From assembly GCA_964347045.1 (NCBI GenBank), contig CAYFXC010000008.1:1-13332 (forward strand): DNA of 13,332 bases. The letters are read 5' to 3'. Shown here one piece after another: positions 152 through 13,332 of the stretch (within the stretch, counting starts at the first letter, position 1; every line of letters begins with the position of its first letter). The notes beneath the pieces were generated by a model that did not search any database, was not told where the DNA came from, and saw nothing but the letters and a program-made list of their open reading frames with translations. Source of the stretch: an uncultured archaeon. Lineage in GTDB: Archaea > Asgardarchaeota > Hermodarchaeia > Hermodarchaeales > Hermodarchaeaceae. The translations under genes were made by a program, and so were the position numbers.

Positions 152-3100
152 TTAGGCCGCTGAAGTGTCAGGAGGCGGCATGGGGGCTAGTTGAATGGGT
201 TTGAATATTCCTTTCACACGCAGTTGATATATTCCCATGAGGGCTTCAAGTTTTTCGGTTTTTGCCGCTGCGAGATAGGTGCTTAGGATTTGACCAAGGA
301 AGATGTATTCTCTGTCAATGGTTAATTCCTTTGCAAGAGTGTAGATGTCGGATTCTAGTGAAGAGAGTTGAGCGCCCCGTGGTCGACGTTTGGTAACACT
401 ATGTGGATGGCGCAGTGAGATTAAGAAGACTTCTTCGACAAGGTCTGATGCGCTGTTGAATTGGTCTACACGACCTTCCCAGTGCTCAAAGTCACCCTTG
501 TATCGCGTCTCAAATACATCTGTGAAAGTTTCGAGTCGGTTTCGTAACTGCTCACTTGGTGTTCCACTCAGAACCAAGGCAACACGGACAAACCGACCAT
601 CGTTGATGAGAATTCGGAAGCCTTCATATTGGAGTTCGCGAAGAGTCCGAGCCTCTTCAGAGTCATCAGCGAGACCGGGACTATCTCCTAGATCGTGACC
701 AAAAGTTGATATCGCTTGGAGGAAGCCAGCTACAAGAGTTGCATCTTGACTTTCTTCCGCGAACGGATCAAAAACACAAATGCCACTTTCTTTATGAAGC
801 ACAAGTAGCCGATTGAGATTTGCTACATCACTAAAGGTGTCAGCAATTGCCTGATATTTTGCGAGTTTCTGAAGACGTTTGGGTAGAAGAACGTATCGGC
901 GATATGTCATGAAACCACCGAGAGGAACGAAAATGATAATTACAACTAGCAATGCAATTAGAGGAAGTTGACTCATGAATACAGTGTTAAATGATATTGC
1001 ACTGATACGCAGAATATCTCCATTATGTTCGAGGGGAGCATTGGAGAGACCAGCATAGTTCTCGGCGGCATCAATTGATACATAAAAGGAATATTGTCCT
1101 TCTTCATTGAGATTACTTTCAAGATGAATCCATCCGTTGACAACATAACTTTCAATTTGGATTGACCCACCACCTTGAACTGTAATGGTTAAAGTAACCT
1201 TGGTACCATCTGGAAGTAAAGCACCACTAGGTTGTTTTAGAAAAGATTGTTGACTTCCTATCAGGTGTGCGGAAGATGAACTAGTTTCAACGAGATAGAA
1301 TTGAATGTCCAAAGACCATGGAGTATTTAGATTTGGTGCAATCGGGTTGAATTCAGGGAGTACATTGTACTCGATGGTCTGTTTAGGAGCTATGGTAAGG
1401 GAGATTGTCGTTGCAGAATCAACAAAATCATTAGCCTCTGCGTATATGGTAACATTGTATGTTCCAGGAGAAAGCCCCTCTGTGCTGAAGTTTGCAATCT
1501 CATAGAGCCCAAGACCTGGTGTTGCTAACGTGAGCGTGGTATTCTCTCCACCATTGACACCTGCTTCAAGGACACCATGGCTTAAGTCTTCACCGTTGAG
1601 TGCATCGCGGAGTACAACCCGAAGAATAATTGGATGATCACTAGTCGGGTATTGCCAATCTTCATAGAGTATAATGTTTTGAAACTCTGTAGGAACATCA
1701 ATTCTTGTTGGACGAGGCTGCGGTCGCACATTGACTGGTTTTGACCAATTGGCTTCATACCCAAATTTTACTGCATAAATCAAAATGAAAGCGGTATCTC
1801 CTTCGTGAAAGGCAATACCACCGATGGGATTTGTGTCAATGGTGATGTTATAAAATCCGATTTTTGTTGAATCAGTAAGTGACCAATCAACCCAGTCAAG
1901 GCGTTTAAACACGCCTAACGTACCATGAACAATATAGGGCACCAATGTGGCGTCCTTGATAGGAATACCGCCATCATCGGTGTACAGGATTGTGAATTGT
2001 AATGAGGAGTCGTTAATGTATGGTTGCGGAGAAGTAAACCAGTAGCTGGACACATTATCTAGACCTGAGAGAGGTTGATCTTCCCAGAAGAAGAGAATGT
2101 GGGTTTCTCTTGTTTTTATTTCAAAGCTTTTGGTTACATTTTGTTCTTGGTTATAGGGTGACGAAAAATACATGGTGATGTTATGGAGAACCCCAACAGA
2201 GGCGTTATGCGTATGGATAAACGCGGTGTAGAATCCTGGTGATCCATATGACGCCCAATTTACCCATTGATAATCGACGACCGTATCTCCAGGACCTAAT
2301 CCCCATTCGAGACCACTTGTTTCGTTTATGATTGTAACAACTGCATCAGGGATAAATATCCCCCATTCATTATAGTACAAGACTTCAATGATGACATCAT
2401 CACCGCGAATGACAGGTTCGTCTTCTTGTGGAAATTCATAGGAGACCCAATAATTAGTTTTGACATAGACTTCAAGGGTTTCAAGGGTTAGACCAGCTTC
2501 AGTACCGTTGAACCATATTATTTGGAGATTGTGAAGCCCCCCGACGGTGGCCGTGGTCCAGATTGACCAGTTGAGTTCAACGATTCCCCCGGGTGGCATT
2601 GCAAGCGGATTGAGATGATAATGAACTATGTAATTTTCCGGATCGTAGACAAGCAGGTAACCGAATCCGCTGGTTGCATTTTCGCCCATCCCATCTTGAA
2701 CGTACCCATTTGCATAAATTGTTTCTGTACTGTTTGCCATCGTTATGGGTTGTCCTGTTTCATTTAGAATTTCTGAGTTCACTAAATAATCGGGAGAACG
2801 GCAAAGGATTGTCCATTGTCCGCTGACCGCATTTTCAATGACAAGCCACCATCCCGTGGTGGGGGAATACCGATAGAAATAATCCATATGAAAAGAGCCA
2901 TCCACAATAACTTGGAAGACATTCCAGTCGGACTCGATTGAGACAGATATCCGTTGGTCTATAGCAGAGGCAGGAAAATCAGCATAAAAACTTACATTCC
3001 AATCCACCCAGTTATGCAGAGCATGCACAGTGAACTGTGAATCGACAATGAGTGTCTCGTAGAACCATCCGATCCAGGTAACATCGTATGTTAATCCGGA

Positions 3101-4234
3101 CCATACATATTCGACGTCAAAGTAGCGATTCGCTTTCGTCATGTTGATAGCCGGTGAATGCCATCCGCCATCCCAAATACCAGTACCTGGATTTGGAAAG
3201 AGATTCATAACGGGAGTTCCATTTACGGTCATTCCGATCTCACTCGGGTAGAAGAACCGAGTAAACACAACTATAAGGAAGAAATCAAGGGAAGGCCCTG
3301 AAAGGAAATTCAAAGAGGGCCAAGGATAAGATTGCCATGCATCACCTTCGTCCTCTCCATCTCCATCAGGTGGAAAACCGACATCTTCCATTAATGCCCA
3401 AGCCGCTGCAGCGCCTGGCATCATGGTCAGTGCAAAATAGAATGTATTCGCATAGGTCATTTGACTATCTAATAGGATTGGTACGGTGGGCAGTCCAATC
3501 CACTGTTCGGTAGAGGAGGGCATATCAGGTACAAATTCTTGCATCCAAGGTCCAAGGGGCCGAGCTAAATCGGGCATTGTACCTAGACCTGAGATTACAC
3601 TTGGAGCAGCAGCATAAACTGTATAGTTAAACCAGCCTCCCGTTCTAGGATTATTTGGTGAATACAAATAGATCGCAAATTCTGTGAGTTCAACAGGTAA
3701 ATGACCAGTGGCATTGAACGCCATAAAAACAACTTCGCCAGGCCATGTTTTTTCATCCATCGGCCAGTAATACCTCCAACCCGTCGAGGGATCATGATCT
3801 TCAACCATGATGAAGTCTTTATTGTCGTTGATGTTGCCGATTCGAGAAAAGAAACTAACATCATGATACATCATCCCTTTATCAATGGTCACCTGATAAT
3901 CAGATCCATTATCTTCCCCCGTAAAGGAATTAGAAATGTTCCATGTTAGTTGGGTCATCCGTGGTGATCCCATTCCAGTTTGAGATAATGGCATTACCGG
4001 GTTCACGGGTTCAGGTTCGGGTATACTAGAATCACTTGGGGAAGTATAGGATTGAGTATTTTGCAGGGTTTCTTGTTCAATATCAGGAATGGCAATATCA
4101 TGAGAAGGAATACTTCTTTCCTCATTTTGCACAATGTCGGGTTGTAAATTGGGTCCATTTACGGGAAAATACGGAATAAGCGGGAAAAGTATCATGCCTA
4201 ACATTAACAATGAAAAAAATTGTATTCTCCTCAT
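152..4234 (-). CDS. Large single-pass membrane glycoprotein: signal peptide, beta-rich (probably Ig-like) ectodomain, TM helix, cytoplasmic longin/roadblock-like domain and possible C-terminal winged helix
   Basis: Long open ORF (1363 aa from GTG 4243; ATG 4234 is preferred because AGGTG lies 6 nt upstream). N-terminus MRRIQFFSLLMLGMILFPLIP is a signal peptide. TM segment LPLIALLVVIIIFVPLGGFMTY is followed by basic RRYVLLPKR. The tail has LLVLHKESGICVF...DATLVAGFLQAISTFG...LRELQYEGFRILINDG, a pattern typical of Asgard longin-like domains. Confidence 0.85.
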   Translation of the reverse strand: MRRIQFFSLLMLGMILFPLIPYFPVNGPNLQPDIVQNEERSIPSHDIAIPDIEQETLQNTQSYTSPSDSSIPEPEPVNPVMPLSQTGMGSPRMTQLTWNISNSFTGEDNGSDYQVTIDKGMMYHDVSFFSRIGNINDNKDFIMVEDHDPSTGWRYYWPMDEKTWPGEVVFMAFNATGHLPVELTEFAIYLYSPNNPRTGGWFNYTVYAAAPSVISGLGTMPDLARPLGPWMQEFVPDMPSSTEQWIGLPTVPILLDSQMTYANTFYFALTMMPGAAAAWALMEDVGFPPDGDGEDEGDAWQSYPWPSLNFLSGPSLDFFLIVVFTRFFYPSEIGMTVNGTPVMNLFPNPGTGIWDGGWHSPAINMTKANRYFDVEYVWSGLTYDVTWIGWFYETLIVDSQFTVHALHNWVDWNVSFYADFPASAIDQRISVSIESDWNVFQVIVDGSFHMDYFYRYSPTTGWWLVIENAVSGQWTILCRSPDYLVNSEILNETGQPITMANSTETIYANGYVQDGMGENATSGFGYLLVYDPENYIVHYHLNPLAMPPGGIVELNWSIWTTATVGGLHNLQIIWFNGTEAGLTLETLEVYVKTNYWVSYEFPQEDEPVIRGDDVIIEVLYYNEWGIFIPDAVVTIINETSGLEWGLGPGDTVVDYQWVNWASYGSPGFYTAFIHTHNASVGVLHNITMYFSSPYNQEQNVTKSFEIKTRETHILFFWEDQPLSGLDNVSSYWFTSPQPYINDSSLQFTILYTDDGGIPIKDATLVPYIVHGTLGVFKRLDWVDWSLTDSTKIGFYNITIDTNPIGGIAFHEGDTAFILIYAVKFGYEANWSKPVNVRPQPRPTRIDVPTEFQNIILYEDWQYPTSDHPIILRVVLRDALNGEDLSHGVLEAGVNGGENTTLTLATPGLGLYEIANFSTEGLSPGTYNVTIYAEANDFVDSATTISLTIAPKQTIEYNVLPEFNPIAPNLNTPWSLDIQFYLVETSSSSAHLIGSQQSFLKQPSGALLPDGTKVTLTITVQGGGSIQIESYVVNGWIHLESNLNEEGQYSFYVSIDAAENYAGLSNAPLEHNGDILRISAISFNTVFMSQLPLIALLVVIIIFVPLGGFMTYRRYVLLPKRLQKLAKYQAIADTFSDVANLNRLLVLHKESGICVFDPFAEESQDATLVAGFLQAISTFGHDLGDSPGLADDSEEARTLRELQYEGFRILINDGRFVRVALVLSGTPSEQLRNRLETFTDVFETRYKGDFEHWEGRVDQFNSASDLVEEVFLISLRHPHSVTKRRPRGAQLSSLESDIYTLAKELTIDREYIFLGQILSTYLAAAKTEKLEALMGIYQLRVKGIFKPIQLAPMPPPDTSAA

Positions 4235-4243
4235 ATTAACCAC

Positions 4244-4470
4244 CTATAGTTGATGAGGTTTCTATTGCAGCCGCAAGGGTGCATTGTACAGAAATTGAAG
4301 AGTGCTGGATTCTCCTCAATGTCTACCTAAAGCCCGTGAAATACGCGTTCTTAAGTATTTGTCTAGATGGTGAGTGGATAAAAATTGATTGAGGGATAAA
4401 CAAAGCTGCGGAGCGTAGCCTATAAGAGATTAAGAAGGTTAGAGTACTTATTCGGAAGTTGATGGAGTGG
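4244..4470. promoter_or_regulatory. Divergent promoter region between the membrane protein gene and the nitroreductase operon
   Basis: Non-coding gap of about 230 bp between head-to-head genes, with AT-rich TATA-like words (TTCTTAAGTATTT, CTATAAG). Exact promoters could not be resolved. Confidence 0.4.
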
Positions 4471-4473
4471 ATG

Positions 4474-5094
4474 ATGATGCCTGCCTTCTTTGAATTCATT
4501 GTCAACAGAAGAAGTATCCGGAAATATAAGAAGAAATCAATACCTCAAAGTCAGATCACTCGTATTGTCGAGATGGGAAAATGGGCACCTTCTGCGCATA
4601 ACGCTCAACCCTGGCGATTCTTTATCTTACAAACATCTGAAGAAAAAGAAAAACTAGCAAGAGCAATGGGTAACATGTTTCGACTGGATCTAGAAAGGGA
4701 TAAGGAGAACCCGAAAATAATTGATAAGTTGGTTCAAGCATCCATTGAACGGTTTTCTTCGGCGCCGGTGCTTATTCTAGCTTGTCTGACGATGCAGCCA
4801 ATGGATTCGTATCCAGATGAAAAACGTCAACAAGCGGAATTTGTTATGGCGATTCAGAGCGTAGCCGCAGCGCTTCAGACGATTCTTCTGGCTGCCCATG
4901 CAGAGGGAGTGGCGACTTGTTGGTTTTGTGCACCATTATTTTGTCCCGATGTTGTACAACGAACGCTAGGATTATCAGAGGAGTTTCTACCACAAGCACT
5001 GGTTACAATGGGAATTGCGGATGAAACTCCTGAGCCACCAATTCGCCATCCATTTGAAGAGTTTGCTACTTTTGTTGACAAAAAGGAGAGATGA
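4474..5094 (+). CDS. FMN-dependent nitroreductase-family protein, FbiB C-terminal-domain/FbiE-like (putative dehydro-F420-0 reductase)
   Basis: Nitroreductase motifs RRSIRKY and APSAHNAQPWRF. The segment QSVAAALQTILLAAHAEGVATCWFCAPLFCPDVVQRTLGL resembles the FbiB C-terminal subfamily. It sits directly upstream of cofD. The start is probably ATG 4474 or 4477, after GGAG at 4464-4467. Confidence 0.85.
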   Translation: MMPAFFEFIVNRRSIRKYKKKSIPQSQITRIVEMGKWAPSAHNAQPWRFFILQTSEEKEKLARAMGNMFRLDLERDKENPKIIDKLVQASIERFSSAPVLILACLTMQPMDSYPDEKRQQAEFVMAIQSVAAALQTILLAAHAEGVATCWFCAPLFCPDVVQRTLGLSEEFLPQALVTMGIADETPEPPIRHPFEEFATFVDKKER

Positions 5095-5098
5095 GACA

Positions 5099-6046
5099 GT
5101 GTTGGTGGTTGCGCTAGCAGGTGGGGTGGGTGCCGCGCGGTTCTTAGAAGGTCTCGTTCAAGAGATGCCTCCTGAAAAGCTCACAATAATCGGGAATACA
5201 GGTGACGACATGGCAAATTTCATGGGATTATACATCTCGCCGGATTTGGATATAGTGACTTACACGCTGGCAGGAGTCGTGGACCCAGTGAAAGGCTGGG
5301 GAATAAAAGGCGATACGTTCCACGCCTTAGAGGTTCTTCAAAACTTGGGATTTGATACTTGGTTTGCACTAGGAGATCAGGATTTGGGTACCCACTTTGC
5401 ACGAACGGCTATGTTACAGCAGGGATGGTCTCTATCTAAAGCGACACAGGTAATCAGTCAATCCATGGGTGTTCGGTGTCGAATTATTCCAATGACAGAG
5501 AAATGGGTGCCTACACGCATTGTAACTGATGTTGGGTTAGTGCATTTTGAAGAATATCTTGTAAAACGTGGCGCGAAGGATACTGTTGAGGATGTGATTT
5601 TTGATGGCATCGACGGCGCCTCACCAAGCCCGGGTGTGCTTGAAGCAATTGAACAAGCGGAACTCATCATTATCTGTCCCAGTAACCCCATCGTAAGTAT
5701 TGGACCAATCCTCGCAGTTCCCGGTATTAAACAAGGAATTATGAAAGCTAATGCTCTCTGTGTAGCGGTCTCGCCGATTATCAGTGGTAAACCAGTAAAA
5801 GGACCTGCGGATAAGCTCATGGAAGGAAAAGGCATTGAAGTCTCACCCGTGGGAGTAGCAGAAATCTATCAAGAGTTCCTCGACGTTTTGATAATTGATA
5901 AGAAAGATCACAAACTAGTCCCACGCATCGAGGAGTTAGGTATGACTGTTGTTGTTGAACAAACGCTCATGACATCTCTAGCACGAAAAAAGAGGTTAGC
6001 TAAAACAGTTCTAAAAGTGGCTAAGGACCAGAAACGCAAATCATAG
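5099..6046 (+). CDS. cofD: 2-phospho-L-lactate (or PEP) transferase CofD/FbiA, coenzyme F420 biosynthesis
   Basis: Family motifs LAGGVGAARF, IGNTGDD..GLYISPDLD, WFALGDQD, HFEEY, ICPSNPIVSIGPIL and VSPII..PVKGPA. Likely start is GTG 5099 (AGGAG at 5084-5088), just after the nitroreductase stop; the ORF-track start at 5015 overlaps the upstream gene. Confidence 0.95.
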   Translation: MLVVALAGGVGAARFLEGLVQEMPPEKLTIIGNTGDDMANFMGLYISPDLDIVTYTLAGVVDPVKGWGIKGDTFHALEVLQNLGFDTWFALGDQDLGTHFARTAMLQQGWSLSKATQVISQSMGVRCRIIPMTEKWVPTRIVTDVGLVHFEEYLVKRGAKDTVEDVIFDGIDGASPSPGVLEAIEQAELIIICPSNPIVSIGPILAVPGIKQGIMKANALCVAVSPIISGKPVKGPADKLMEGKGIEVSPVGVAEIYQEFLDVLIIDKKDHKLVPRIEELGMTVVVEQTLMTSLARKKRLAKTVLKVAKDQKRKS

Positions 6047-6094: not shown

Positions 6095-7546
6095 ATGATA
6101 AAAATTTACAATACCCTCTCACGGAAGAAAGAGCCCTTCACCCCATTGCACGCGGGCGAGGTACGCATGTATGTCTGCGGACCCACCGTGTATGATTCAA
6201 GTCATTTAGGTCATGCCCGTTCAATTGTCGCTTTTGACGTGATTCGACGCTATTTAGAGTATAAAGGCTATGATATGCGTTTCATCCAGAACTTCACTGA
6301 TATAGATGATAAAATGATTCAACGCGCTCAATCCCAAAAAACTACCACTGACAAGTTAGCCACCAAGTACATTCAGGAGTATTTTGAAGATTTTGATAGG
6401 CTCAGCGTGAAACGAGCCACAGCTTATCCGAAAGCCACAGAACACATCCAAGAGATGATTGAATATATTCAGAAATTAGTCAAGAAAGGATTTGCATACG
6501 AAGCTAATGGTAGTGTATATTTCAGGGTGACCAAAATCAAGAATTATGGGAAACTTTCGCGCCAAGAAAGGAGTGAAAAGGTGGTTGAGGATCAAGATGC
6601 TGGCGTTGCAGAGGATAAGGAACACCCGAAGGATTTTGCTTTATGGAAGAAAATGAAGCCGGGGGAACCGAGTTGGGATTCCCCTTGGGGGAAAGGTCGA
6701 CCAGGATGGCATATTGAATGCTCTGTCATGTCAACCAAATATCTTGGTGACCCAATTGATATACACGGTGGTGGGCTAGACCTTGTTTTTCCCCATCACG
6801 AAAATGAAATTGCACAATCAGAGGCCTTGAGTGGACAACCGTTTGTGCGTTATTGGATGCATAATGGATTCCTTACCGTAAATAAAGAGAAGATGTCCAA
6901 ATCTTTGGGGAACTTTTTCACAATCCAAGAAATTACTAAAAAATATAATCCAGAAGTTATTCGATTTTTTCTTATTTCATCTCAGTACCGGAGCCCCATT
7001 GATTTCAGCGACGCACAGCTTGAAGAAGCAAAATCCCGACTATCCCGCATTCACAATTCCATTGATATCCTTCAACGTCGCCTTCGTGAAGCCCGAATTG
7101 CTGAAGTAAAAAATACGGTAAAACCCTCTTCCGCAGATGTAGAGTTATGGGAGGCGTTATCAACGTTAGAGAAGGAATTTGAGCAGGCTATGGATGATGA
7201 TTTCAATACACCCATAGCCTTAGCAAATTTGAATAAGTTTCTGACCAAGATGAACTCCGTGCTCTCTGGTGGTAACTCTGTTACTGTAGGAACCCTACAA
7301 AAAGTCTTTGAGACGCTTGATGCGATTGGTGAAGTCTTTGGCCTATACCGTGAGCGAATGAAACTGGAAGCAATGGACCAAGGAACAATTAATGGTTTAG
7401 TGGAAATTCTAATTCAGCTTAGGAATGAAGCACGGAAACTAAAAGATTTCAAAACAGCAGATCGGATCAGGGATCAGCTGAAAGAGCTCGGAATCCTTCT
7501 TGAGGATGAAAAATCGGGAACTGTGTGGAAGTTAGAAGGAAAATGA
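6095..7546 (+). CDS. cysS: Cysteine--tRNA ligase (class I CysRS)
   Basis: Motifs MYVCGPTVYD..HLGHAR (HIGH), NFTDIDDK, DFALWK, SPWGKGRPGWHIECS, DIHGGGLDLVFPHHENE and KMSKSLGN, plus the C-terminal DFKTADRIRDQL anticodon-binding region. Confidence 0.98.
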   Translation: MIKIYNTLSRKKEPFTPLHAGEVRMYVCGPTVYDSSHLGHARSIVAFDVIRRYLEYKGYDMRFIQNFTDIDDKMIQRAQSQKTTTDKLATKYIQEYFEDFDRLSVKRATAYPKATEHIQEMIEYIQKLVKKGFAYEANGSVYFRVTKIKNYGKLSRQERSEKVVEDQDAGVAEDKEHPKDFALWKKMKPGEPSWDSPWGKGRPGWHIECSVMSTKYLGDPIDIHGGGLDLVFPHHENEIAQSEALSGQPFVRYWMHNGFLTVNKEKMSKSLGNFFTIQEITKKYNPEVIRFFLISSQYRSPIDFSDAQLEEAKSRLSRIHNSIDILQRRLREARIAEVKNTVKPSSADVELWEALSTLEKEFEQAMDDDFNTPIALANLNKFLTKMNSVLSGGNSVTVGTLQKVFETLDAIGEVFGLYRERMKLEAMDQGTINGLVEILIQLRNEARKLKDFKTADRIRDQLKELGILLEDEKSGTVWKLEGK

Positions 7547-8820
7547 AAGCATTAATTCTTGCCGCTGGCTACGGCACACGATTACATCCTTTAACCCAAT
7601 ATCGACCAAAGGCAATGCTCCCGCTCCTTGGTAAGCCAATGCTTCATCATGTAATTGATTCCGTGCATGATGCGGGAATGAAAGAAATTGTGTTAGTGGT
7701 TGGTCATTATCGAGAACAGATTGAAGGTTATTTTGGTGATGGTGAACACCTAGGAGTCAATATTAGCTATGCTGAGCAAACAGAGCCGAAAGGTGAATAT
7801 GACGCTGTTCTAGCAGCGGAACAGAATCTTTCCACTGAAGATCGGTTTCTGATGACTGATTGCGACATCATTACAACAACAAGTCGCTTCAAAGATACAC
7901 TGAAAGCAGCAAAAACTGGAGACATGGCCTTATCACTTTTTGAAGTGCCAAATCCTTGGCAATTCGGAGTAGTAGAATTAGATGGAACCAAAATTACAAC
8001 TATTGTCGAGAAACCAAAGAAGGGCACTGAACCGAGTAATCTTGCGGTTGCAGGCGTCTATGTATTTTCAAAGACAATTTTTAATGCAATCCGTAAAACC
8101 CAAGATCTAGAGGTGGGAATCCAAGAGCTGATCAATGAAGGACATACCGTATATGGGAGCCATTCAAAGGATCCCTGGGTTGATGTTGGTCGCACCTGGA
8201 ATATACTTGAGGCATCCCCTGTGCTCTTTGACCGATTACGGAAACAAAAAGGAGAACCTATTGATTCATCCGCAACTGTGAGCGATGCTGCGCATATCAG
8301 CGGAGATGTATGGATTGGACCCAGAGCCAGGATATTTCCAGGAGCGTCTCTTGTTGGACCAGTTTTTGTTGGACCAGATGCTATTATTGGCAATAATTGT
8401 CTTCTCCGTGATCAGGTAGTGATGGAGCAAGGGGCAAGAACTGGTTTTTCCTGTGAACTTCGAAACACGGTGATGATGCCCCAAGGCCGTATTGGTCATC
8501 TCGCCTTTGTTGGAGACAGTATCCTCGGGTTTGATGTAGAAATTGGAGCTAGTGTCGTTTTGTCGAATTACCGATTTGATGGAGCAGAAGTGCACGTTAT
8601 GCTCCAAAATCAGTTGGTCTCTACTCACACTGATAAATTTGGGGCAGTTGTTGGTGATACATCAAAAATTGGATGTGGGGTTGTTGTACTACCAGGTCGA
8701 ACCATTGGATATAATTCGTGGATTGACCCCTTGATTGTCGTACAAAGAGATGTTGCGGATAATACGCACCTGAAGTTGAAACAGACTCTCATTGAAAAAC
8801 AACGACGCCCTTCTACTTAG
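7543..8820 (+). CDS. glmU: Archaeal GlmU-type bifunctional sugar-1-phosphate nucleotidylyltransferase/acetyltransferase
   Basis: N-terminal MKALILAAGYGTRLHPLT..RPKAMLP, EKP and WVDVG motifs. C-terminal hexapeptide beta-helix with HLAFVGDSILG, SNYRFD and KFGAVVGD. ATG 7543 overlaps the cysS stop (ATGA). Substrate specificity is uncertain. Confidence 0.85.
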   Translation: MKALILAAGYGTRLHPLTQYRPKAMLPLLGKPMLHHVIDSVHDAGMKEIVLVVGHYREQIEGYFGDGEHLGVNISYAEQTEPKGEYDAVLAAEQNLSTEDRFLMTDCDIITTTSRFKDTLKAAKTGDMALSLFEVPNPWQFGVVELDGTKITTIVEKPKKGTEPSNLAVAGVYVFSKTIFNAIRKTQDLEVGIQELINEGHTVYGSHSKDPWVDVGRTWNILEASPVLFDRLRKQKGEPIDSSATVSDAAHISGDVWIGPRARIFPGASLVGPVFVGPDAIIGNNCLLRDQVVMEQGARTGFSCELRNTVMMPQGRIGHLAFVGDSILGFDVEIGASVVLSNYRFDGAEVHVMLQNQLVSTHTDKFGAVVGDTSKIGCGVVVLPGRTIGYNSWIDPLIVVQRDVADNTHLKLKQTLIEKQRRPST

Positions 8821-10216
8821 TAAGTCGAGTTAACGCCGTTTTTGCATCCTTTAGGAGCATCTTGGCACGCTGAGCTGAAAATGCTTCAACGGTTAAACGA
8901 ATTACTGGCTCGGTTCCAGAGGGGCGAACAAGTATCCAACTAGAATCAGAAAAACTGACCCGCACACCATCCATTTTATTCACATCTTGTACGTCTTTCC
9001 ACTTTTCGAGTGAGGAACTAATTTGGGTCATTACTTTAGCTTTTTGCGCATTTGAATAGGATACAGAAGCCCGAAGCAAAAATGTGGAGGGTAAATCATC
9101 TACAAGCTGACTTAGGGGACGATTAGCCCAGTCTAAAAGTTCAAGTATCTTGCAGGCCGCAAGAGGCCCATCCGGGCATAGATGGACTTCAGGGAAAATA
9201 AAAGGTCCAGAGGGTTCAGCACCGATAATTGCATTATGATCCTTAACCAGGTTAGATACAAAGACATCTCCAACACGGCTTCGTTCGACTCTTGCTCCAT
9301 GTTGCTTTGCCACATGATCAACTACACTCGAACTGGATACAGTTGTAGCGATGACTTTTCCTCCGCGCGTCGCAAGATAATAATCAGCTACAAGAGCTAG
9401 GAGAGTGTCACCTGCAAGAATGCGTCCTTTGTCATCAACGGCAAGGACGCGGTCTGCATCACCATCATGGGCAATTCCCACATCTGTATTCGTTGATGTA
9501 ACTATCTCGCTCAAATCATCTAAGCAAACAAAGTGTTGCCATTCTGCCGCCGCCGCACTTTGAGTTTTTGAGGGCCCACAATGTTGAGCATATTCTTTTC
9601 CATTAGGAGGAGCATTGAGGAGTTTGACATGAGCATTAAGCTGACGTAATGCAATGGGCGTGACAAGGCTACCAACGCCAAGAGCAGCATCTAAAACAAC
9701 ATTATATGTTTTCGTTACTTGAGTTGCATCATGAATAGCATTGATATGAGGGGGAAGGGCTTCGAAGGAATGAAAATCTGCAAAATCTTCCCAACCAACT
9801 GCAACCGCATCTTTGAGAAAGGTTTCAATTTCCTCTTGTTGAGATATTGAAAATCCTGCTCCATCAGGATTATGAAATTTAAATCCATTATATTCAGGGG
9901 GATTGTGACTAGCTGTCACTATCAGCGATGCATTCAATCCAATCTTTCCTGCAGCATAAGCGATTGACGGGGTAGGAGCCATTTCTGTTTTAGTAACAGG
10001 GACTCCACCTTGAAGGAGTCCAGCCGTCAATCCTGAGGTCAGCATGGGACCAGTGATCCGATGATCATGCCCCACCATTATTTGTGGAGTCTGGTAATGA
10101 GTTCGGAGAAATTGAGCCGTTGCTAGACCGAGTTTTATCGCAAATGGACCAGTGATAACTTCGTTGACTTTACCTCTGATGCCAGAGCTACCAAACAGTG
10201 ACTGCGTGAATGGCAT
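8813..10216 (-). CDS. glmM: Alpha-D-phosphohexomutase, most likely phosphoglucosamine mutase
   Basis: Motifs LFGSSGIRG, TASHNP (phosphoserine), HDGDADR (metal), AEPSG (sugar loop) and RPSGTEP. Adjacent to the GlmU-type gene, with a GGTG ribosome-binding site upstream. The family is secure; the specific glmM call is inferred. Confidence 0.8.
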   Translation of the reverse strand: MPFTQSLFGSSGIRGKVNEVITGPFAIKLGLATAQFLRTHYQTPQIMVGHDHRITGPMLTSGLTAGLLQGGVPVTKTEMAPTPSIAYAAGKIGLNASLIVTASHNPPEYNGFKFHNPDGAGFSISQQEEIETFLKDAVAVGWEDFADFHSFEALPPHINAIHDATQVTKTYNVVLDAALGVGSLVTPIALRQLNAHVKLLNAPPNGKEYAQHCGPSKTQSAAAAEWQHFVCLDDLSEIVTSTNTDVGIAHDGDADRVLAVDDKGRILAGDTLLALVADYYLATRGGKVIATTVSSSSVVDHVAKQHGARVERSRVGDVFVSNLVKDHNAIIGAEPSGPFIFPEVHLCPDGPLAACKILELLDWANRPLSQLVDDLPSTFLLRASVSYSNAQKAKVMTQISSSLEKWKDVQDVNKMDGVRVSFSDSSWILVRPSGTEPVIRLTVEAFSAQRAKMLLKDAKTALTRLTK

Positions 10217-10244
10217 TATAACTTACACCACTGATATTAGCATT

Positions 10245-11624
10245 CTATGTGGAGGCATTTCTAAGAACATGATTAATCCATTCTAGGCCGAGGTTCAGAA
10301 GTTCCTGGGCACGTTTCTTCTTTCTTGATTCGGCGAAACAGCGAAAGACCGGTTCAGTTCCGGAAGGGCGGAGAAGCAGCCATCCATCAGCGAATACTGC
10401 TTTGACTCCATCTATGGTTATGATTCGCGCTTTAGGAAATTGTTCTTTGATCATGTCTAAAGCATGGAGTGTAACAGCTTCTTTGAGTTCGTTCGGGCAT
10501 TCGATTGCTCTTTTCAATTGGATGTATTGGGGAAATTCATCGATGATGTTGCTCAGCGATCTTGTGTGTTGGGCGAGATATTCGAGGAGATGGGCGATAC
10601 CAAGACCGCTATCAGAGAGATAGTTGAGCCGGGGATAGATAACTTTACCAGATTCTTCAAAGGCAAAGAGGGCATTATGTTTCTTTGCCGCAGCAACTAT
10701 TGCGGGTGGACCTACGCGACTATAAACAACGCGAGCTTTGAATTGTCCAACTATGTCTTCGACAAGATTGCTTGAATTAATGGGAGTGATAATTGTCCCT
10801 CCACCTTCCCGTGAAAGTTCAATGTAAGCCAAGAGCGTGCCCGACACATCACCCATCAATGCACGCCCTTTATCATCAATGAAGAAAACGCGGTCAGCAT
10901 CACCATCTGTAGCTACTCCCAAATCCGCCTTCTGCTCCTTAACAAGTTGCACTGCTTGATCTAATAGTTTGACTCGTAAATTAGGTGACCGCCCAGGAAA
11001 TTTGGGATCACGCTCCGTATTCAGACCAATTATGGTACAGCCCAACTGGTCGATAACGTCAAGCAACCAGGGTATAGCTGTTCCATTGGCAGCATCGACA
11101 ACAATGCGAAATTGCCGTTTGCGAATTAAGTCCACATCCACTTGTTCTAAAACCTTAGTGACCCAAAAGGCACCTACATCAGTTATTCGGCGTAGTTGCC
11201 CATGGATTAGCCAATCAATGGGTTTAGCTCTAGCCATATTTAGCTGTTCGATTTGATTCTCAATATCATGAAAAACCGGAGCACCATCAGCACCAAGCAC
11301 TTCAATTCCAGACATATGAGCAGGAATATGACTTCCCGTAATAAGAACCGCCCCTCCCACCTCACAATGACGAGTATAAAGACTTACGGCGGGAGTAATG
11401 ACTTCGCCACCATAATGAGCATCTGAACCCCCTGCCATTAATCCACTAGCGACTGCATTGGTAAGAAGTGGACTGCTGGTTCGGTTATCATGGCAGACTA
11501 GAATGGGTTTCTGATTAAACACCGTGGCAATACTATAACCAATTTGCCAAGCGATTTCAGAATTTAATTCATCAGGAACACTTCCACGAATACCACTTGT
11601 ACCAAAGGACGGAGTCCATGCCAT
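10245..11624 (-). CDS. Alpha-D-phosphohexomutase superfamily protein (PMM/PGM-like), variant catalytic loop
   Basis: Motifs FGTSGIRG, TGSHIP, TDGDADR, FEESG and RPSGTEP. Likely start is ATG 11624 (MAWTPSFG) with GAGG upstream; the ORF track starts at 11660. Confidence 0.92.
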   Translation of the reverse strand: MAWTPSFGTSGIRGSVPDELNSEIAWQIGYSIATVFNQKPILVCHDNRTSSPLLTNAVASGLMAGGSDAHYGGEVITPAVSLYTRHCEVGGAVLITGSHIPAHMSGIEVLGADGAPVFHDIENQIEQLNMARAKPIDWLIHGQLRRITDVGAFWVTKVLEQVDVDLIRKRQFRIVVDAANGTAIPWLLDVIDQLGCTIIGLNTERDPKFPGRSPNLRVKLLDQAVQLVKEQKADLGVATDGDADRVFFIDDKGRALMGDVSGTLLAYIELSREGGGTIITPINSSNLVEDIVGQFKARVVYSRVGPPAIVAAAKKHNALFAFEESGKVIYPRLNYLSDSGLGIAHLLEYLAQHTRSLSNIIDEFPQYIQLKRAIECPNELKEAVTLHALDMIKEQFPKARIITIDGVKAVFADGWLLLRPSGTEPVFRCFAESRKKKRAQELLNLGLEWINHVLRNAST

Positions 11625-11660
11625 GATGAAGCCTCTTTCAACAACTTTCCAATAAACCAT

Positions 11661-11756
11661 AGGGGCACGCTTTTATACCCCTTTTTATAGGCTGGTTTTT
11701 TCTACAATGCATAAAGCAAAGAAGTTAAATCTGCTGACTACTTTAAGGAGATTAGG
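11661..11756. promoter_or_regulatory. Divergent archaeal BRE/TATA promoters
   Basis: Minus strand reads AAAAAGGGG-TATAAAAG (about 11670-11686) upstream of the mutase. Plus strand reads AAAGAAG-TTAAAT (about 11718-11730), about 27 bp before ATG 11757, with AGGAG at 11746-11750. Confidence 0.5.
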
Positions 11757-12467
11757 ATGAGAGTCGTTAAAACTACGGATTCCCTTGGGAATTCAACACA
11801 AATGGATGAAGACCATCTTGCTGCAGTCATACGTGAGTTTGGGCGATCTATGCGTGAAGTTACTGGTGGCTTAGATGATGCAATGAATCGTTGGGAATCA
11901 GCGCATCGTAGTTCACTTCGACCCATCCGAGTTATTCTGGGCGCGTTATCAAAAATTAATTACTTCCGTAATATCGAAGATCTTGGAAAACTCAATTCCT
12001 TCGATGGTATTGTTGATCGTGCTATTACTAAAAACATGGGTCTTCTTGACAAGGTGCTTCCCAAAGTATTAGCCCTTGCATCTGATTTTGAAAGTTCAAT
12101 CCGTAAAATGAGACTCATGGAAAAACGGGTTTTCGAATTACAACGTCGCGGAGCTAGTTTATTAGGCGGAGAAGGCAACGATGAACCACGGGTTCGACAG
12201 CTAGTTGACAACGTCGATGCACTGAGTTGTAAACTCCGACAAATTGTGTGCATGTACGAGGATGAATATCTCTTCCGCAAGAAGACCATCCGAAACATTG
12301 AGGAACTAATAGACCCGAAGGAACTCTATACAAGCCTTCTATTATGGACTATGGAGCCATATCTGGAATCGGATCGGATCGAAGCCATTCGCAGAGAAAT
12401 TGGCACCCACATTGAGGAGACGCGATCCTTGGTTTCACGGCAAAACGTCCCCGCGAATATGTTCTAA
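11757..12467 (+). CDS. All-helical protein resembling eukaryotic CINP / C1orf109 (AIRIM) AAA+ adaptor family
   Basis: 236-aa ORF filling the gap between two mutases, with its own RBS and TATA-like element. Amphipathic helical pattern throughout. The C-terminal MYEDEYLFRKK...DP......LLLWTMEPYLESD resembles the CINP C-terminus as recalled from memory. The CDS is well supported; the homology needs a search. Confidence 0.7.
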   Translation: MRVVKTTDSLGNSTQMDEDHLAAVIREFGRSMREVTGGLDDAMNRWESAHRSSLRPIRVILGALSKINYFRNIEDLGKLNSFDGIVDRAITKNMGLLDKVLPKVLALASDFESSIRKMRLMEKRVFELQRRGASLLGGEGNDEPRVRQLVDNVDALSCKLRQIVCMYEDEYLFRKKTIRNIEELIDPKELYTSLLLWTMEPYLESDRIEAIRREIGTHIEETRSLVSRQNVPANMF

Positions 12468-12545
12468 GCAGGCTAGCTTGAATTGAAGTACCCCACACAT
12501 TAATTAGTTAACACGTAGGTTTGAGAAGTACGAGAGGAGTCTCTT

Positions 12546-13332
12546 TTGACCCGACTATTTGGTACCCAAGGATTTCGAGGAATTGTCAATGAAGAACTCA
12601 CATCAATGGTAGCACACGATATTGGTTTGGCAATGGCGGAATTTATGGGTATTCAGAAAACCATTGGATTAGGATGGGACACACGTAAAACCAGCGAAAT
12701 GATAGGATTTGCCTTTAGTGCAGGCCTTATGACTGGGGGGTGCGATGTTCATCTTTTCGGTCTCATTCCGACACCCCTATTGTCATATGCCATCCCACAC
12801 CTTAATCTGGATGGCGGTGCAATGATAACAGCCAGCCACAATCCTCCAGAATTTAATGGCATCAAATTATGGGGAAAGGATGGCGCGTCTTTCACCCCAG
12901 AAATGGAACGTGGAGTTGAAAGCCATTATTTTACCAAAGAAAAGGTTCAGAAAAATTGGCAAACTTGTGGACGCCTAATTCCTGCAGAGGATTTTAGACT
13001 TCAATATATTGAAGGATTATTAGATCAGGTTGATTCACAACGAATAATAAAACAACAGTTTCGTGTAGCAGCGGATTGTGGTGGAGGCGCTGCCACAATG
13101 GTAGCTCCAGTACTTTTGAATGCCGTTGATGCTCAAACGGAATTGTTGTTTTGTGAGCCAGATGGACTCTTTGCCAATCGATTACCTGAACCGAAGGAAA
13201 ACAACTTGACGCAATTAATTGAATGCGTTAAAGAGAACAATCTGGATCTTGGAATGGCATGGGATGGCGACGCAGATCGTGTTGTTTTTATTACAAACAA
13301 AGGTCGATATTTAATGGGCGACCGCATCTTTG
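12546..13332 (+). CDS. Third alpha-D-phosphohexomutase (PMM/PGM/GlmM family), truncated by the window edge
   Basis: Manually translated from TTG 12546 (GAGGAG at 12534-12539): MTRLFGTQGFRGIVNEELT...GWDTRKTS...IPTP...MITASHNPPEFNGIK...EPDGLFANRLPEP...AWDGDADRV...LMGDRIF. The frame is open to the end of the window, which is why it is missing from the ORF track. Confidence 0.95.
   Translation, partial: MTRLFGTQGFRGIVNEELTSMVAHDIGLAMAEFMGIQKTIGLGWDTRKTSEMIGFAFSAGLMTGGCDVHLFGLIPTPLLSYAIPHLNLDGGAMITASHNPPEFNGIKLWGKDGASFTPEMERGVESHYFTKEKVQKNWQTCGRLIPAEDFRLQYIEGLLDQVDSQRIIKQQFRVAADCGGGAATMVAPVLLNAVDAQTELLFCEPDGLFANRLPEPKENNLTQLIECVKENNLDLGMAWDGDADRVVFITNKGRYLMGDRIF

Follow-up and report, generated by a model that had tools for sequence, protein, structure and literature searches.

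A CINP/C1orf109-family protein in an Asgard archaeon and its possible relation to Cdc48-type unfoldases

Introduction

Does an Asgard archaeon carry a relative of the adaptor proteins that sit on a eukaryotic AAA+ unfoldase, and if so, could that relative work in a similar way? The question is raised by one open reading frame in the stretch of DNA analyzed here (13,332 nucleotides, referred to as the window), whose product resembles CINP and C1orf109, disease-linked parts of the human 55LCC complex, which matures the large ribosomal subunit. Human CINP and C1orf109, with five helices each, pair into a T-shaped heterodimer by way of the alpha1-alpha2 loop of C1orf109 (PMC12019325, PMC11055677). 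The C1orf109-CINP pair is bound by the N-domains of SPATA5 and SPATA5L1 and forms a funnel above the pore (PMC11055677, PMC12019325).

In Arabidopsis, the OPENER complex places OPNR (C1ORF109-like), OAP1 (CINP-like), and OAP2 on a CDC48D-CIP111 hexamer (PMC12332008). The lid module of OPENER is old within eukaryotes and takes hold of an eL24-family placeholder by the tail (PMC12332008). A 2025 preprint called CINP and C1orf109 eumetazoan-specific.

The preliminary description of this locus suspected that CINP-like proteins had already been flagged in Asgard surveys, rightly so. Koestlbacher et al. (Nat Microbiol 2026; PMC12962969, Fig. 4h) list CINP, under the name CINPL, among the Asgard “isomorphic ESPs”, and report CINPL from five major Asgard clades, with no occurrence in other prokaryotes. 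They describe eukaryotic CINP as monophyletic and sister to Hodarchaeal sequences (UFBOOT 99). The family is therefore already known, and the window contributes one further CINPL member: compared with CINPL as presented there, the window protein belongs to the same family and has no distinguishing feature, the full-length matches to CINP being shared. The occurrence of this lid family in Asgard archaea, already in print, places its origin before the eukaryotes.

The main text of PMC12962969, as searched, says nothing on C1orf109, copy number, oligomeric state, partner ATPase, or substrate. Beyond that paper, we add that the gene is single-copy, that it shows no co-variation with Cdc48, that no ATPase gene was seen adjoining it in the loci examined, and that no Rlp24-like second eL24 accompanies it.

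The CINP-like gene and its neighborhood

Translation and an all-helical model bear out the preliminary description of the frame at 11757-12467 as encoding a helical protein of 236 aa with a characteristic C-terminal peptide (Table 1). That peptide, QIVCMYEDEYLFRKKTIRNIEELIDPKELYTSLLLWTMEPYLESD, corresponds to residues 162-206 of the 236-aa protein (nt 12240-12374) by translation.

Some database orthologues are annotated from the second methionine (M16, nt 11802; 221 aa), and the conserved part of the protein begins at about residue 17 in the homologue alignment. Other orthologues have valine at the M16 position, so the upstream start is obligatory in those. In the window, the Shine-Dalgarno-like AAGGAG supports the first ATG. 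Two A/T-rich, TATA-like elements lie inside the 96-nt divergent spacer that separates the start of a PGM/PMM gene (11660, minus strand) from the CINP-like gene, and together with AAGGAG they support the annotated start.

The N-terminal residues 1-20, MRVVKTTDSLGNSTQMDEDH, lack both the PRKP and the RKIK motif of animal CINP. Both motifs are dispensable for complex formation in human cells (PMC11055677). Because the human complex forms without them, we did not treat them as family-defining.

Table 1. Features of the window (nucleotide positions counted from its first letter)
Feature	Position	Strand	Remarks
Large uncharacterized protein, 1363-aa ORF	152-4243	-	No Pfam family
Nitroreductase-family ORF	4459-5094	+	
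CofD (2-phospho-L-lactate transferase) ORF	5015-6046	+	80-nt overlap with the nitroreductase-family ORF as listed
Nucleotidyl-transferase with left-handed beta-helix tail, GlmU/GMPP-like	7525-8820	+	
PGM/PMM-family paralogue	8813-10216	-	
PGM/PMM-family paralogue	10245-11660	-	
TATA-box-like TTTTATA	11671-11677	.	Putative promoter element by sequence reading
TATA-box-like TTTTTATA	11682-11689	.	Putative promoter element by sequence reading
AAGGAG, Shine-Dalgarno-like	11745-11750	+	Six bases 5' of ATG 11757; putative function, by sequence reading
CINP-like CDS (CINPL / PF15011-type)	11757-12467	+	236 aa, ATG start, stop codon included
W46 codon, helix 1	11892-11894	+	Invariant in Asgard members; aligned with Trp of human CINP LKW
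Helix1-helix2 loop L76-G84 (LGKLNSFDG)	11982-12008	+	Loop placed from predicted model; LGKL..F signature conserved family-wide
C-terminal conserved block Q162-D206 (MYE...DP...W..EPY.ESD)	12240-12374	+	From alignments to human CINP
PGM/PMM-family paralogue	12546-13331	+	Runs off window end

A sugar-nucleotide gene cluster surrounds the CINP-like gene (window 7525-13331). The order PGM/PMM <- CINP-like gene -> PGM/PMM is kept across the two genera of the window's family; other families lack it and have a CBS-HTH regulator, SAM synthetase, and Trp/Tyr-tRNA ligase as neighbors. Neither the window nor any of the 31 related loci inspected showed an ATPase gene beside the CINP-like gene, and the earlier statement that the window holds no AAA+ gene is correct for the ORFs scanned. 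Further upstream, Pfam searched at E<=1 assigned no family to the 1363-aa ORF and gave only faint matches to Big_10 and PilO (E ~0.2). The Pfam match of CofD starts from residue 31, so its actual start is probably downstream of the listed one.

Relationship to CINP and C1orf109

The first sign of kinship was the human CINP C-terminus quoted in the preliminary description, which proved letter-perfect. In an ungapped phmmer alignment against PDB sequences, residues 162-206 of the window protein pair with KLLEMYRKELLLKRTVAKELAHTGDPDLTLSYLSMWLHQPYVESD of human CINP (entries 9gwj_B, 8cih_A, 8rhn_C, and 9lgo_J), and the matches at MY..E.L, DP, L..W, and PY.ESD are as first given. The residue number of the window protein equals the human CINP number plus 11 in this alignment, a numbering validated by the fact that all four residues named in PMC11055677 fall on the right letters. 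F173, T192, and L195 thereby correspond to CINP L162, S181, and S184.

As a single-sequence comparison, this match is not above chance (E 0.44-0.64, ~13 bits; phmmer, PDB sequences). When 1.84 billion representatives were searched exhaustively with phmmer, no more than 13 proteins reached E<=1e-3, all named ones from Asgard MAGs. Together with two word-indexed profile searches, this phmmer search returned Asgard proteins only and no eukaryotic CINP or C1orf109. The 32 homologues collected are 61-93% identical to the window protein, and the close homologues in this range come solely from Asgard MAGs named Promethearchaeota or Hodarchaeota. A narrow profile of 30 close homologues (A1) brought no improvement against the PDB, with CINP at E 0.44.

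Profiles built from more diverse members reach CINP clearly. Profile A2, made from 17 diverse Asgard members, matches human CINP in the PDB at E 7.9e-9, with profile positions 8-185 on chain residues 5-179 of 196, and the deeper profile A4 (32 members) does so at E 4.7e-11 and 45.6 bits, with positions 7-183 on the same residues 5-179 of 196. The family's most conserved columns, MY..E, W...EPY, and W46, fall on identical residues in human CINP. In both alignments, I163, M166, E168/E170, W197, E200, and P201 are near-invariant and W46 is invariant, its match to CINP being tryptophan to tryptophan in the profile alignment. Loss of the MY..E and W...PY motifs had been named beforehand as counting against kinship; these motifs are among the most conserved Asgard columns.

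An independent model points the same way. At E<=1e-3, Pfam PF15011 (CA109-like, the C1orf109 family; gathering cut-off 27 bits) matches 30 of 32 diverse Asgard members, the strongest at E 1.6e-14, and no other family recurs. For the window protein, the score is 22.7 bits (E 9.8e-5, residues 33-182), below the 27-bit cut-off. Six of ten distant members lie above 27 bits, scoring 36.7-54.5, and orthologues 88-92% identical to the window protein carry precomputed PF15011.13 matches. A literature search by the PF15011 identifier found no publications.

Among 30 language-model neighbors listed by the ESM Atlas, 19 are PF15011-bearing clusters and seven are CDK2-interacting-protein-like without a common Pfam family. 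The named nearest clusters among those listed are all eukaryotic, either C1orf109-like or CINP-like.

Against the human C1orf109 chain itself, A2 and A4 give E 0.011-0.023, a noise-level result interspersed with designed bundles, and the match to C1orf109 covers profile positions 17-162, ending before the Asgard C-terminal W..EPY block. An N-terminal-only profile (A5, whose F67 is F82 of the window protein) does not list C1orf109 against the PDB and gives CINP at E 0.8. The homology to CINP is full-length; kinship with C1orf109 draws on the Pfam model and the fold.

Predicted structure and conserved interface elements

The AlphaFold2 model of the window protein is helical throughout (pLDDT 88.3, pTM 0.81). 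Its best Foldseek matches in the PDB are the CINP and C1orf109 chains of 8cih, 9gwj, 9lgo, and 8rhn (TM up to 0.61/0.69), with 8cih_A (CINP) at rank 1. VIA-align, run over 48,161 chains, places 9gwj_C (C1orf109) first (Z 15.0, 193 residues aligned) and 9lgo_J (CINP) second (Z 14.7, rmsd 2.9, 168/174 residues). Designed helical bundles come close behind (Z 14.2/13.3 vs 15.0/14.7), and a search of the ESM Atlas by shape yielded unspecific helical matches only. Given the bundles at Z 13-14 and the unspecific shape search, the fold is insufficient alone, and the sequence profiles carry the case.

These figures bear on whether the likeness might be a chance resemblance between long-helix bundles, with no kinship to CINP/C1orf109. 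The insignificant single-sequence match, the near-equal scores of designed bundles, the unspecific shape search, and the failure of the N-terminal profile to find either human protein are all what such a coincidence would produce. A collinear, full-length profile match at the level reached by A4, an independent Pfam model recurring across the family, and matching motifs that are also the family's most conserved columns argue against it, as does the published, independent phylogeny that sets eukaryotic CINP beside Hodarchaeal sequences (PMC12962969). On these sequence comparisons, chance resemblance appears largely refuted by the A2, A4, and PF15011 results, and we consider it very improbable. 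The relationship to CINP/C1orf109 put forward in the preliminary description holds up in the A4 match to CINP, in the Pfam results, and in the top two structural matches, and we regard the window protein as a homologue of this family with high confidence.

The window protein shares with human CINP (8cih, 8rhn, 9lgo, 9gwj) the helix-1 tryptophan, MY..E, DP, W...PY.ESD, and the long five-helix architecture, whereas structure-based identity is only ~11-15%. The best superposition on the model of the window protein is that of C1orf109 (AIRIM), and the Asgard helix1-helix2 loop is conserved, as is the loop used by C1orf109. On the predicted model, the L76-G84 loop would be the positional counterpart of the CINP-binding C1orf109 alpha1-alpha2 loop, a mapping that is approximate. 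At the other end of the protein, mutation of the C-terminal segment of CINP breaks the human complex (PMC11055677), and the best-conserved Asgard block coincides with this segment.

Distribution and copy number

The A2 profile finds the CINP-like gene in 120 of 301 genomes of the phylum. It is concentrated in four families (16/18, 71/76, 5/5, and 20/21 genomes), and the same profile finds none in other Asgard families (0/68, 0/29, and 0/11 genomes). With many Asgard families lacking the gene, any role it has is dispensable or lineage-specific.

Each of the 120 positive genomes, including genomes that are 96-100% complete, has a single copy, apparent doubles being fragments. In the window's own genome (89% complete), PF15011 and A2 both give one match at E<=1. 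A second lid subunit, as in the CINP and C1orf109 pair, was not detected, there being one family gene per genome.

The copies in genus g18 (L030:113-844 in genome G020; protein P0038) carry ~40 additional residues between the central helices, the rest of the gene being intact. In-frame stops suspected in these copies were rejected, the flagged codon being the terminal stop.

Copy number bears directly on how far the eukaryotic arrangement may extend to Asgard archaea. Human and plant lids are hetero-oligomers, and a 55LCC-like adaptor could likewise be a heterodimer with a highly diverged C1orf109-like second subunit that escaped detection. The Asgard profile barely picks up C1orf109 (E ~0.02), so a diverged paralogue could be missed, and the incompleteness of the window's genome leaves some room for one. 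However, neither PF15011 nor A2 finds a second gene there at E<=1, no second full-length copy occurs in any of the positive genomes, some of them close to or fully complete, and both interface-type conserved elements are found on one protein. We therefore consider a hidden second subunit improbable.

Candidate partner ATPases and substrate

The window's genome encodes three Cdc48/VAT paralogues with canonical N-domains, at C15:27342-29618, C3:77499-79751, and C2:126498-128657 (designated C15, C3, and C2), and three single-ring AAA proteins. All three double-ring ATPases rank VAT (739-812 bits) above p97 (616-677) and p97 above SPATA5 (552-655). By this score ranking, none of the Cdc48 paralogues in this genome appears to be SPATA5-type. 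Archaeal VAT-like Cdc48 is the source of SPATA5 and SPATA5L1, and in published trees all archaeal Cdc48 proteins fall outside the eukaryotic Spaf/Spaf-like clade (PMC5070193).

We compared 17 genomes with the CINP-like gene and 14 without it. No Cdc48 paralogue tracked the gene across this panel of 17 and 14 genomes. N-domains of the C15 and C3 types occur in families both with and without the CINP-like gene, and the C2 type is restricted to the window's genus among the 31 genomes.

Drg1, SPATA5, and the plant complex pull out an eL24 paralogue via its tail (PMC12019325, PMC12332008). A single Ribosomal_L24e gene was found in the window's genome and in each of the 31 panel genomes, with no Rlp24/RSL24D1-type eL24 paralogue among them. 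The Asgard genome differs from human 55LCC, in which a separate C1orf109, a SPATA5/SPATA5L1 pair, and an Rlp24-type substrate are present, none of which was detected here. OPENER, compared with the Asgard protein by description, also involves a helical lid, seated on a double-ring ATPase of the Cdc48 family, but has three distinct lid subunits and a dedicated ATPase pair, whereas the Asgard genome has one lid-type gene and one eL24.

The preliminary description had also cast this protein as an adaptor of a CDC48/VAT-type ATPase. The homology on which that proposal was built stands; the adaptor role finds no direct support, with neither ATPase adjacency nor co-variation. The same two results, together with the lack of an Rlp24-type substrate, the lack by score ranking of a SPATA5-type ATPase, and the branching of all archaeal Cdc48 outside the Spaf/Spaf-like clade, would be expected if a true CINP homologue worked without an AAA+ unfoldase in Asgard archaea and the link to the Cdc48 family arose only in eukaryotes. 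Such a protein might serve replication or genome maintenance as a helical scaffold, or might be a ribosome-associated factor; human CINP itself entered the literature as a replication and checkpoint factor (cited in PMC12962969). In animals and plants, however, the family is known only within a lid on a Cdc48-family hexamer, and the block involved in complex formation is the best-conserved part of the protein from Asgard to human. CDK2 and ATRIP, the other reported partners of CINP, are eukaryotic and would not be expected in archaea, which we also count against a non-unfoldase role. We consider this alternative rather unlikely, though a serious one. Were it true, recruitment of the family to an ATPase would have occurred only in eukaryotes.

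A proposed lid on Cdc48/VAT

The reading that we prefer has the Asgard CINP-like protein cover the N-terminal domains of a double-ring AAA+ unfoldase of the Cdc48 type as a helical “lid”, where it would help to present a substrate tail to the ATPase pore. The partner would be one of the widespread archaeal Cdc48/VAT paralogues and not a dedicated SPATA5-type enzyme. By analogy with the human and plant complexes, we advance this adaptor mechanism tentatively, as possible but somewhat short of probable.

Since there is one gene per genome and both conserved interface elements, the helix1-helix2 loop and the C-terminal block, lie on the same protein, the lid would act as a homo-oligomer. The statement as a whole, a single-copy member of the CINP/C1orf109 family forming a homo-oligomeric lid on Cdc48/VAT, is one to which we give nearly, though not fully, balanced credence. 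A complex prediction with two copies of the window protein (residues 16-230) and the C15 Cdc48 N-domain scored 0.01 (mark 0.32) and counts neither way.

A more far-reaching version holds that the Asgard gene is of the undivided type ancestral to both eukaryotic lid subunits, forming a homo-oligomeric lid on an ordinary Cdc48/VAT. 55LCC and OPENER would then have arisen through parallel duplication of the lid (CINP and C1orf109) and the motor (SPATA5 and SPATA5L1). We hold this evolutionary scenario to be conceivable but on the whole doubtful.

On this scenario, which the published Asgard paper does not put forward, the adaptor-unfoldase module predates the eukaryotes and is not “eumetazoan-specific”. 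If the homo-oligomeric lid on Cdc48 is real, a single lid gene together with an ordinary Cdc48 could offer a simpler version of the lid-plus-motor module for study, and would provide a concrete case of a eukaryotic hetero-complex arising from paired duplications.

Further features of the eL24 and Cdc48 genes

The eL24 of the window's genome (C16:9958-10419, minus strand) is ~135 aa long and combines an L24e zinc-ribbon with a Lys/Ala/Pro-rich basic tail of ~75 aa (KAKPKAKAKPK...). Frames of such length (153 and 138 aa) were seen in no genus but that of the window, those of 29 other Asgard genomes being 60-105 aa. The basic tail was considered as an archaeal counterpart of the Rlp24 tail and rejected, as it is genus-specific and the other genomes bearing the CINP-like gene have short L24e frames.

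The third Cdc48/VAT paralogue of the window's genome (C2:126498-128657, minus strand) is a 719-aa frame with a fast-evolving N-domain. Used as a query, this N-domain found an orthologue in the same genus only (82% identity) and none in the sister genus or other families. Two Cdc48-type N-domain matches in other Asgard genomes (G210:C9:116467-116955 and G025:C47:3857-4351) lie in open frames of 1241 and 1236 aa, compared with ~730-760 aa elsewhere, suggesting fused or extended forms of Cdc48.
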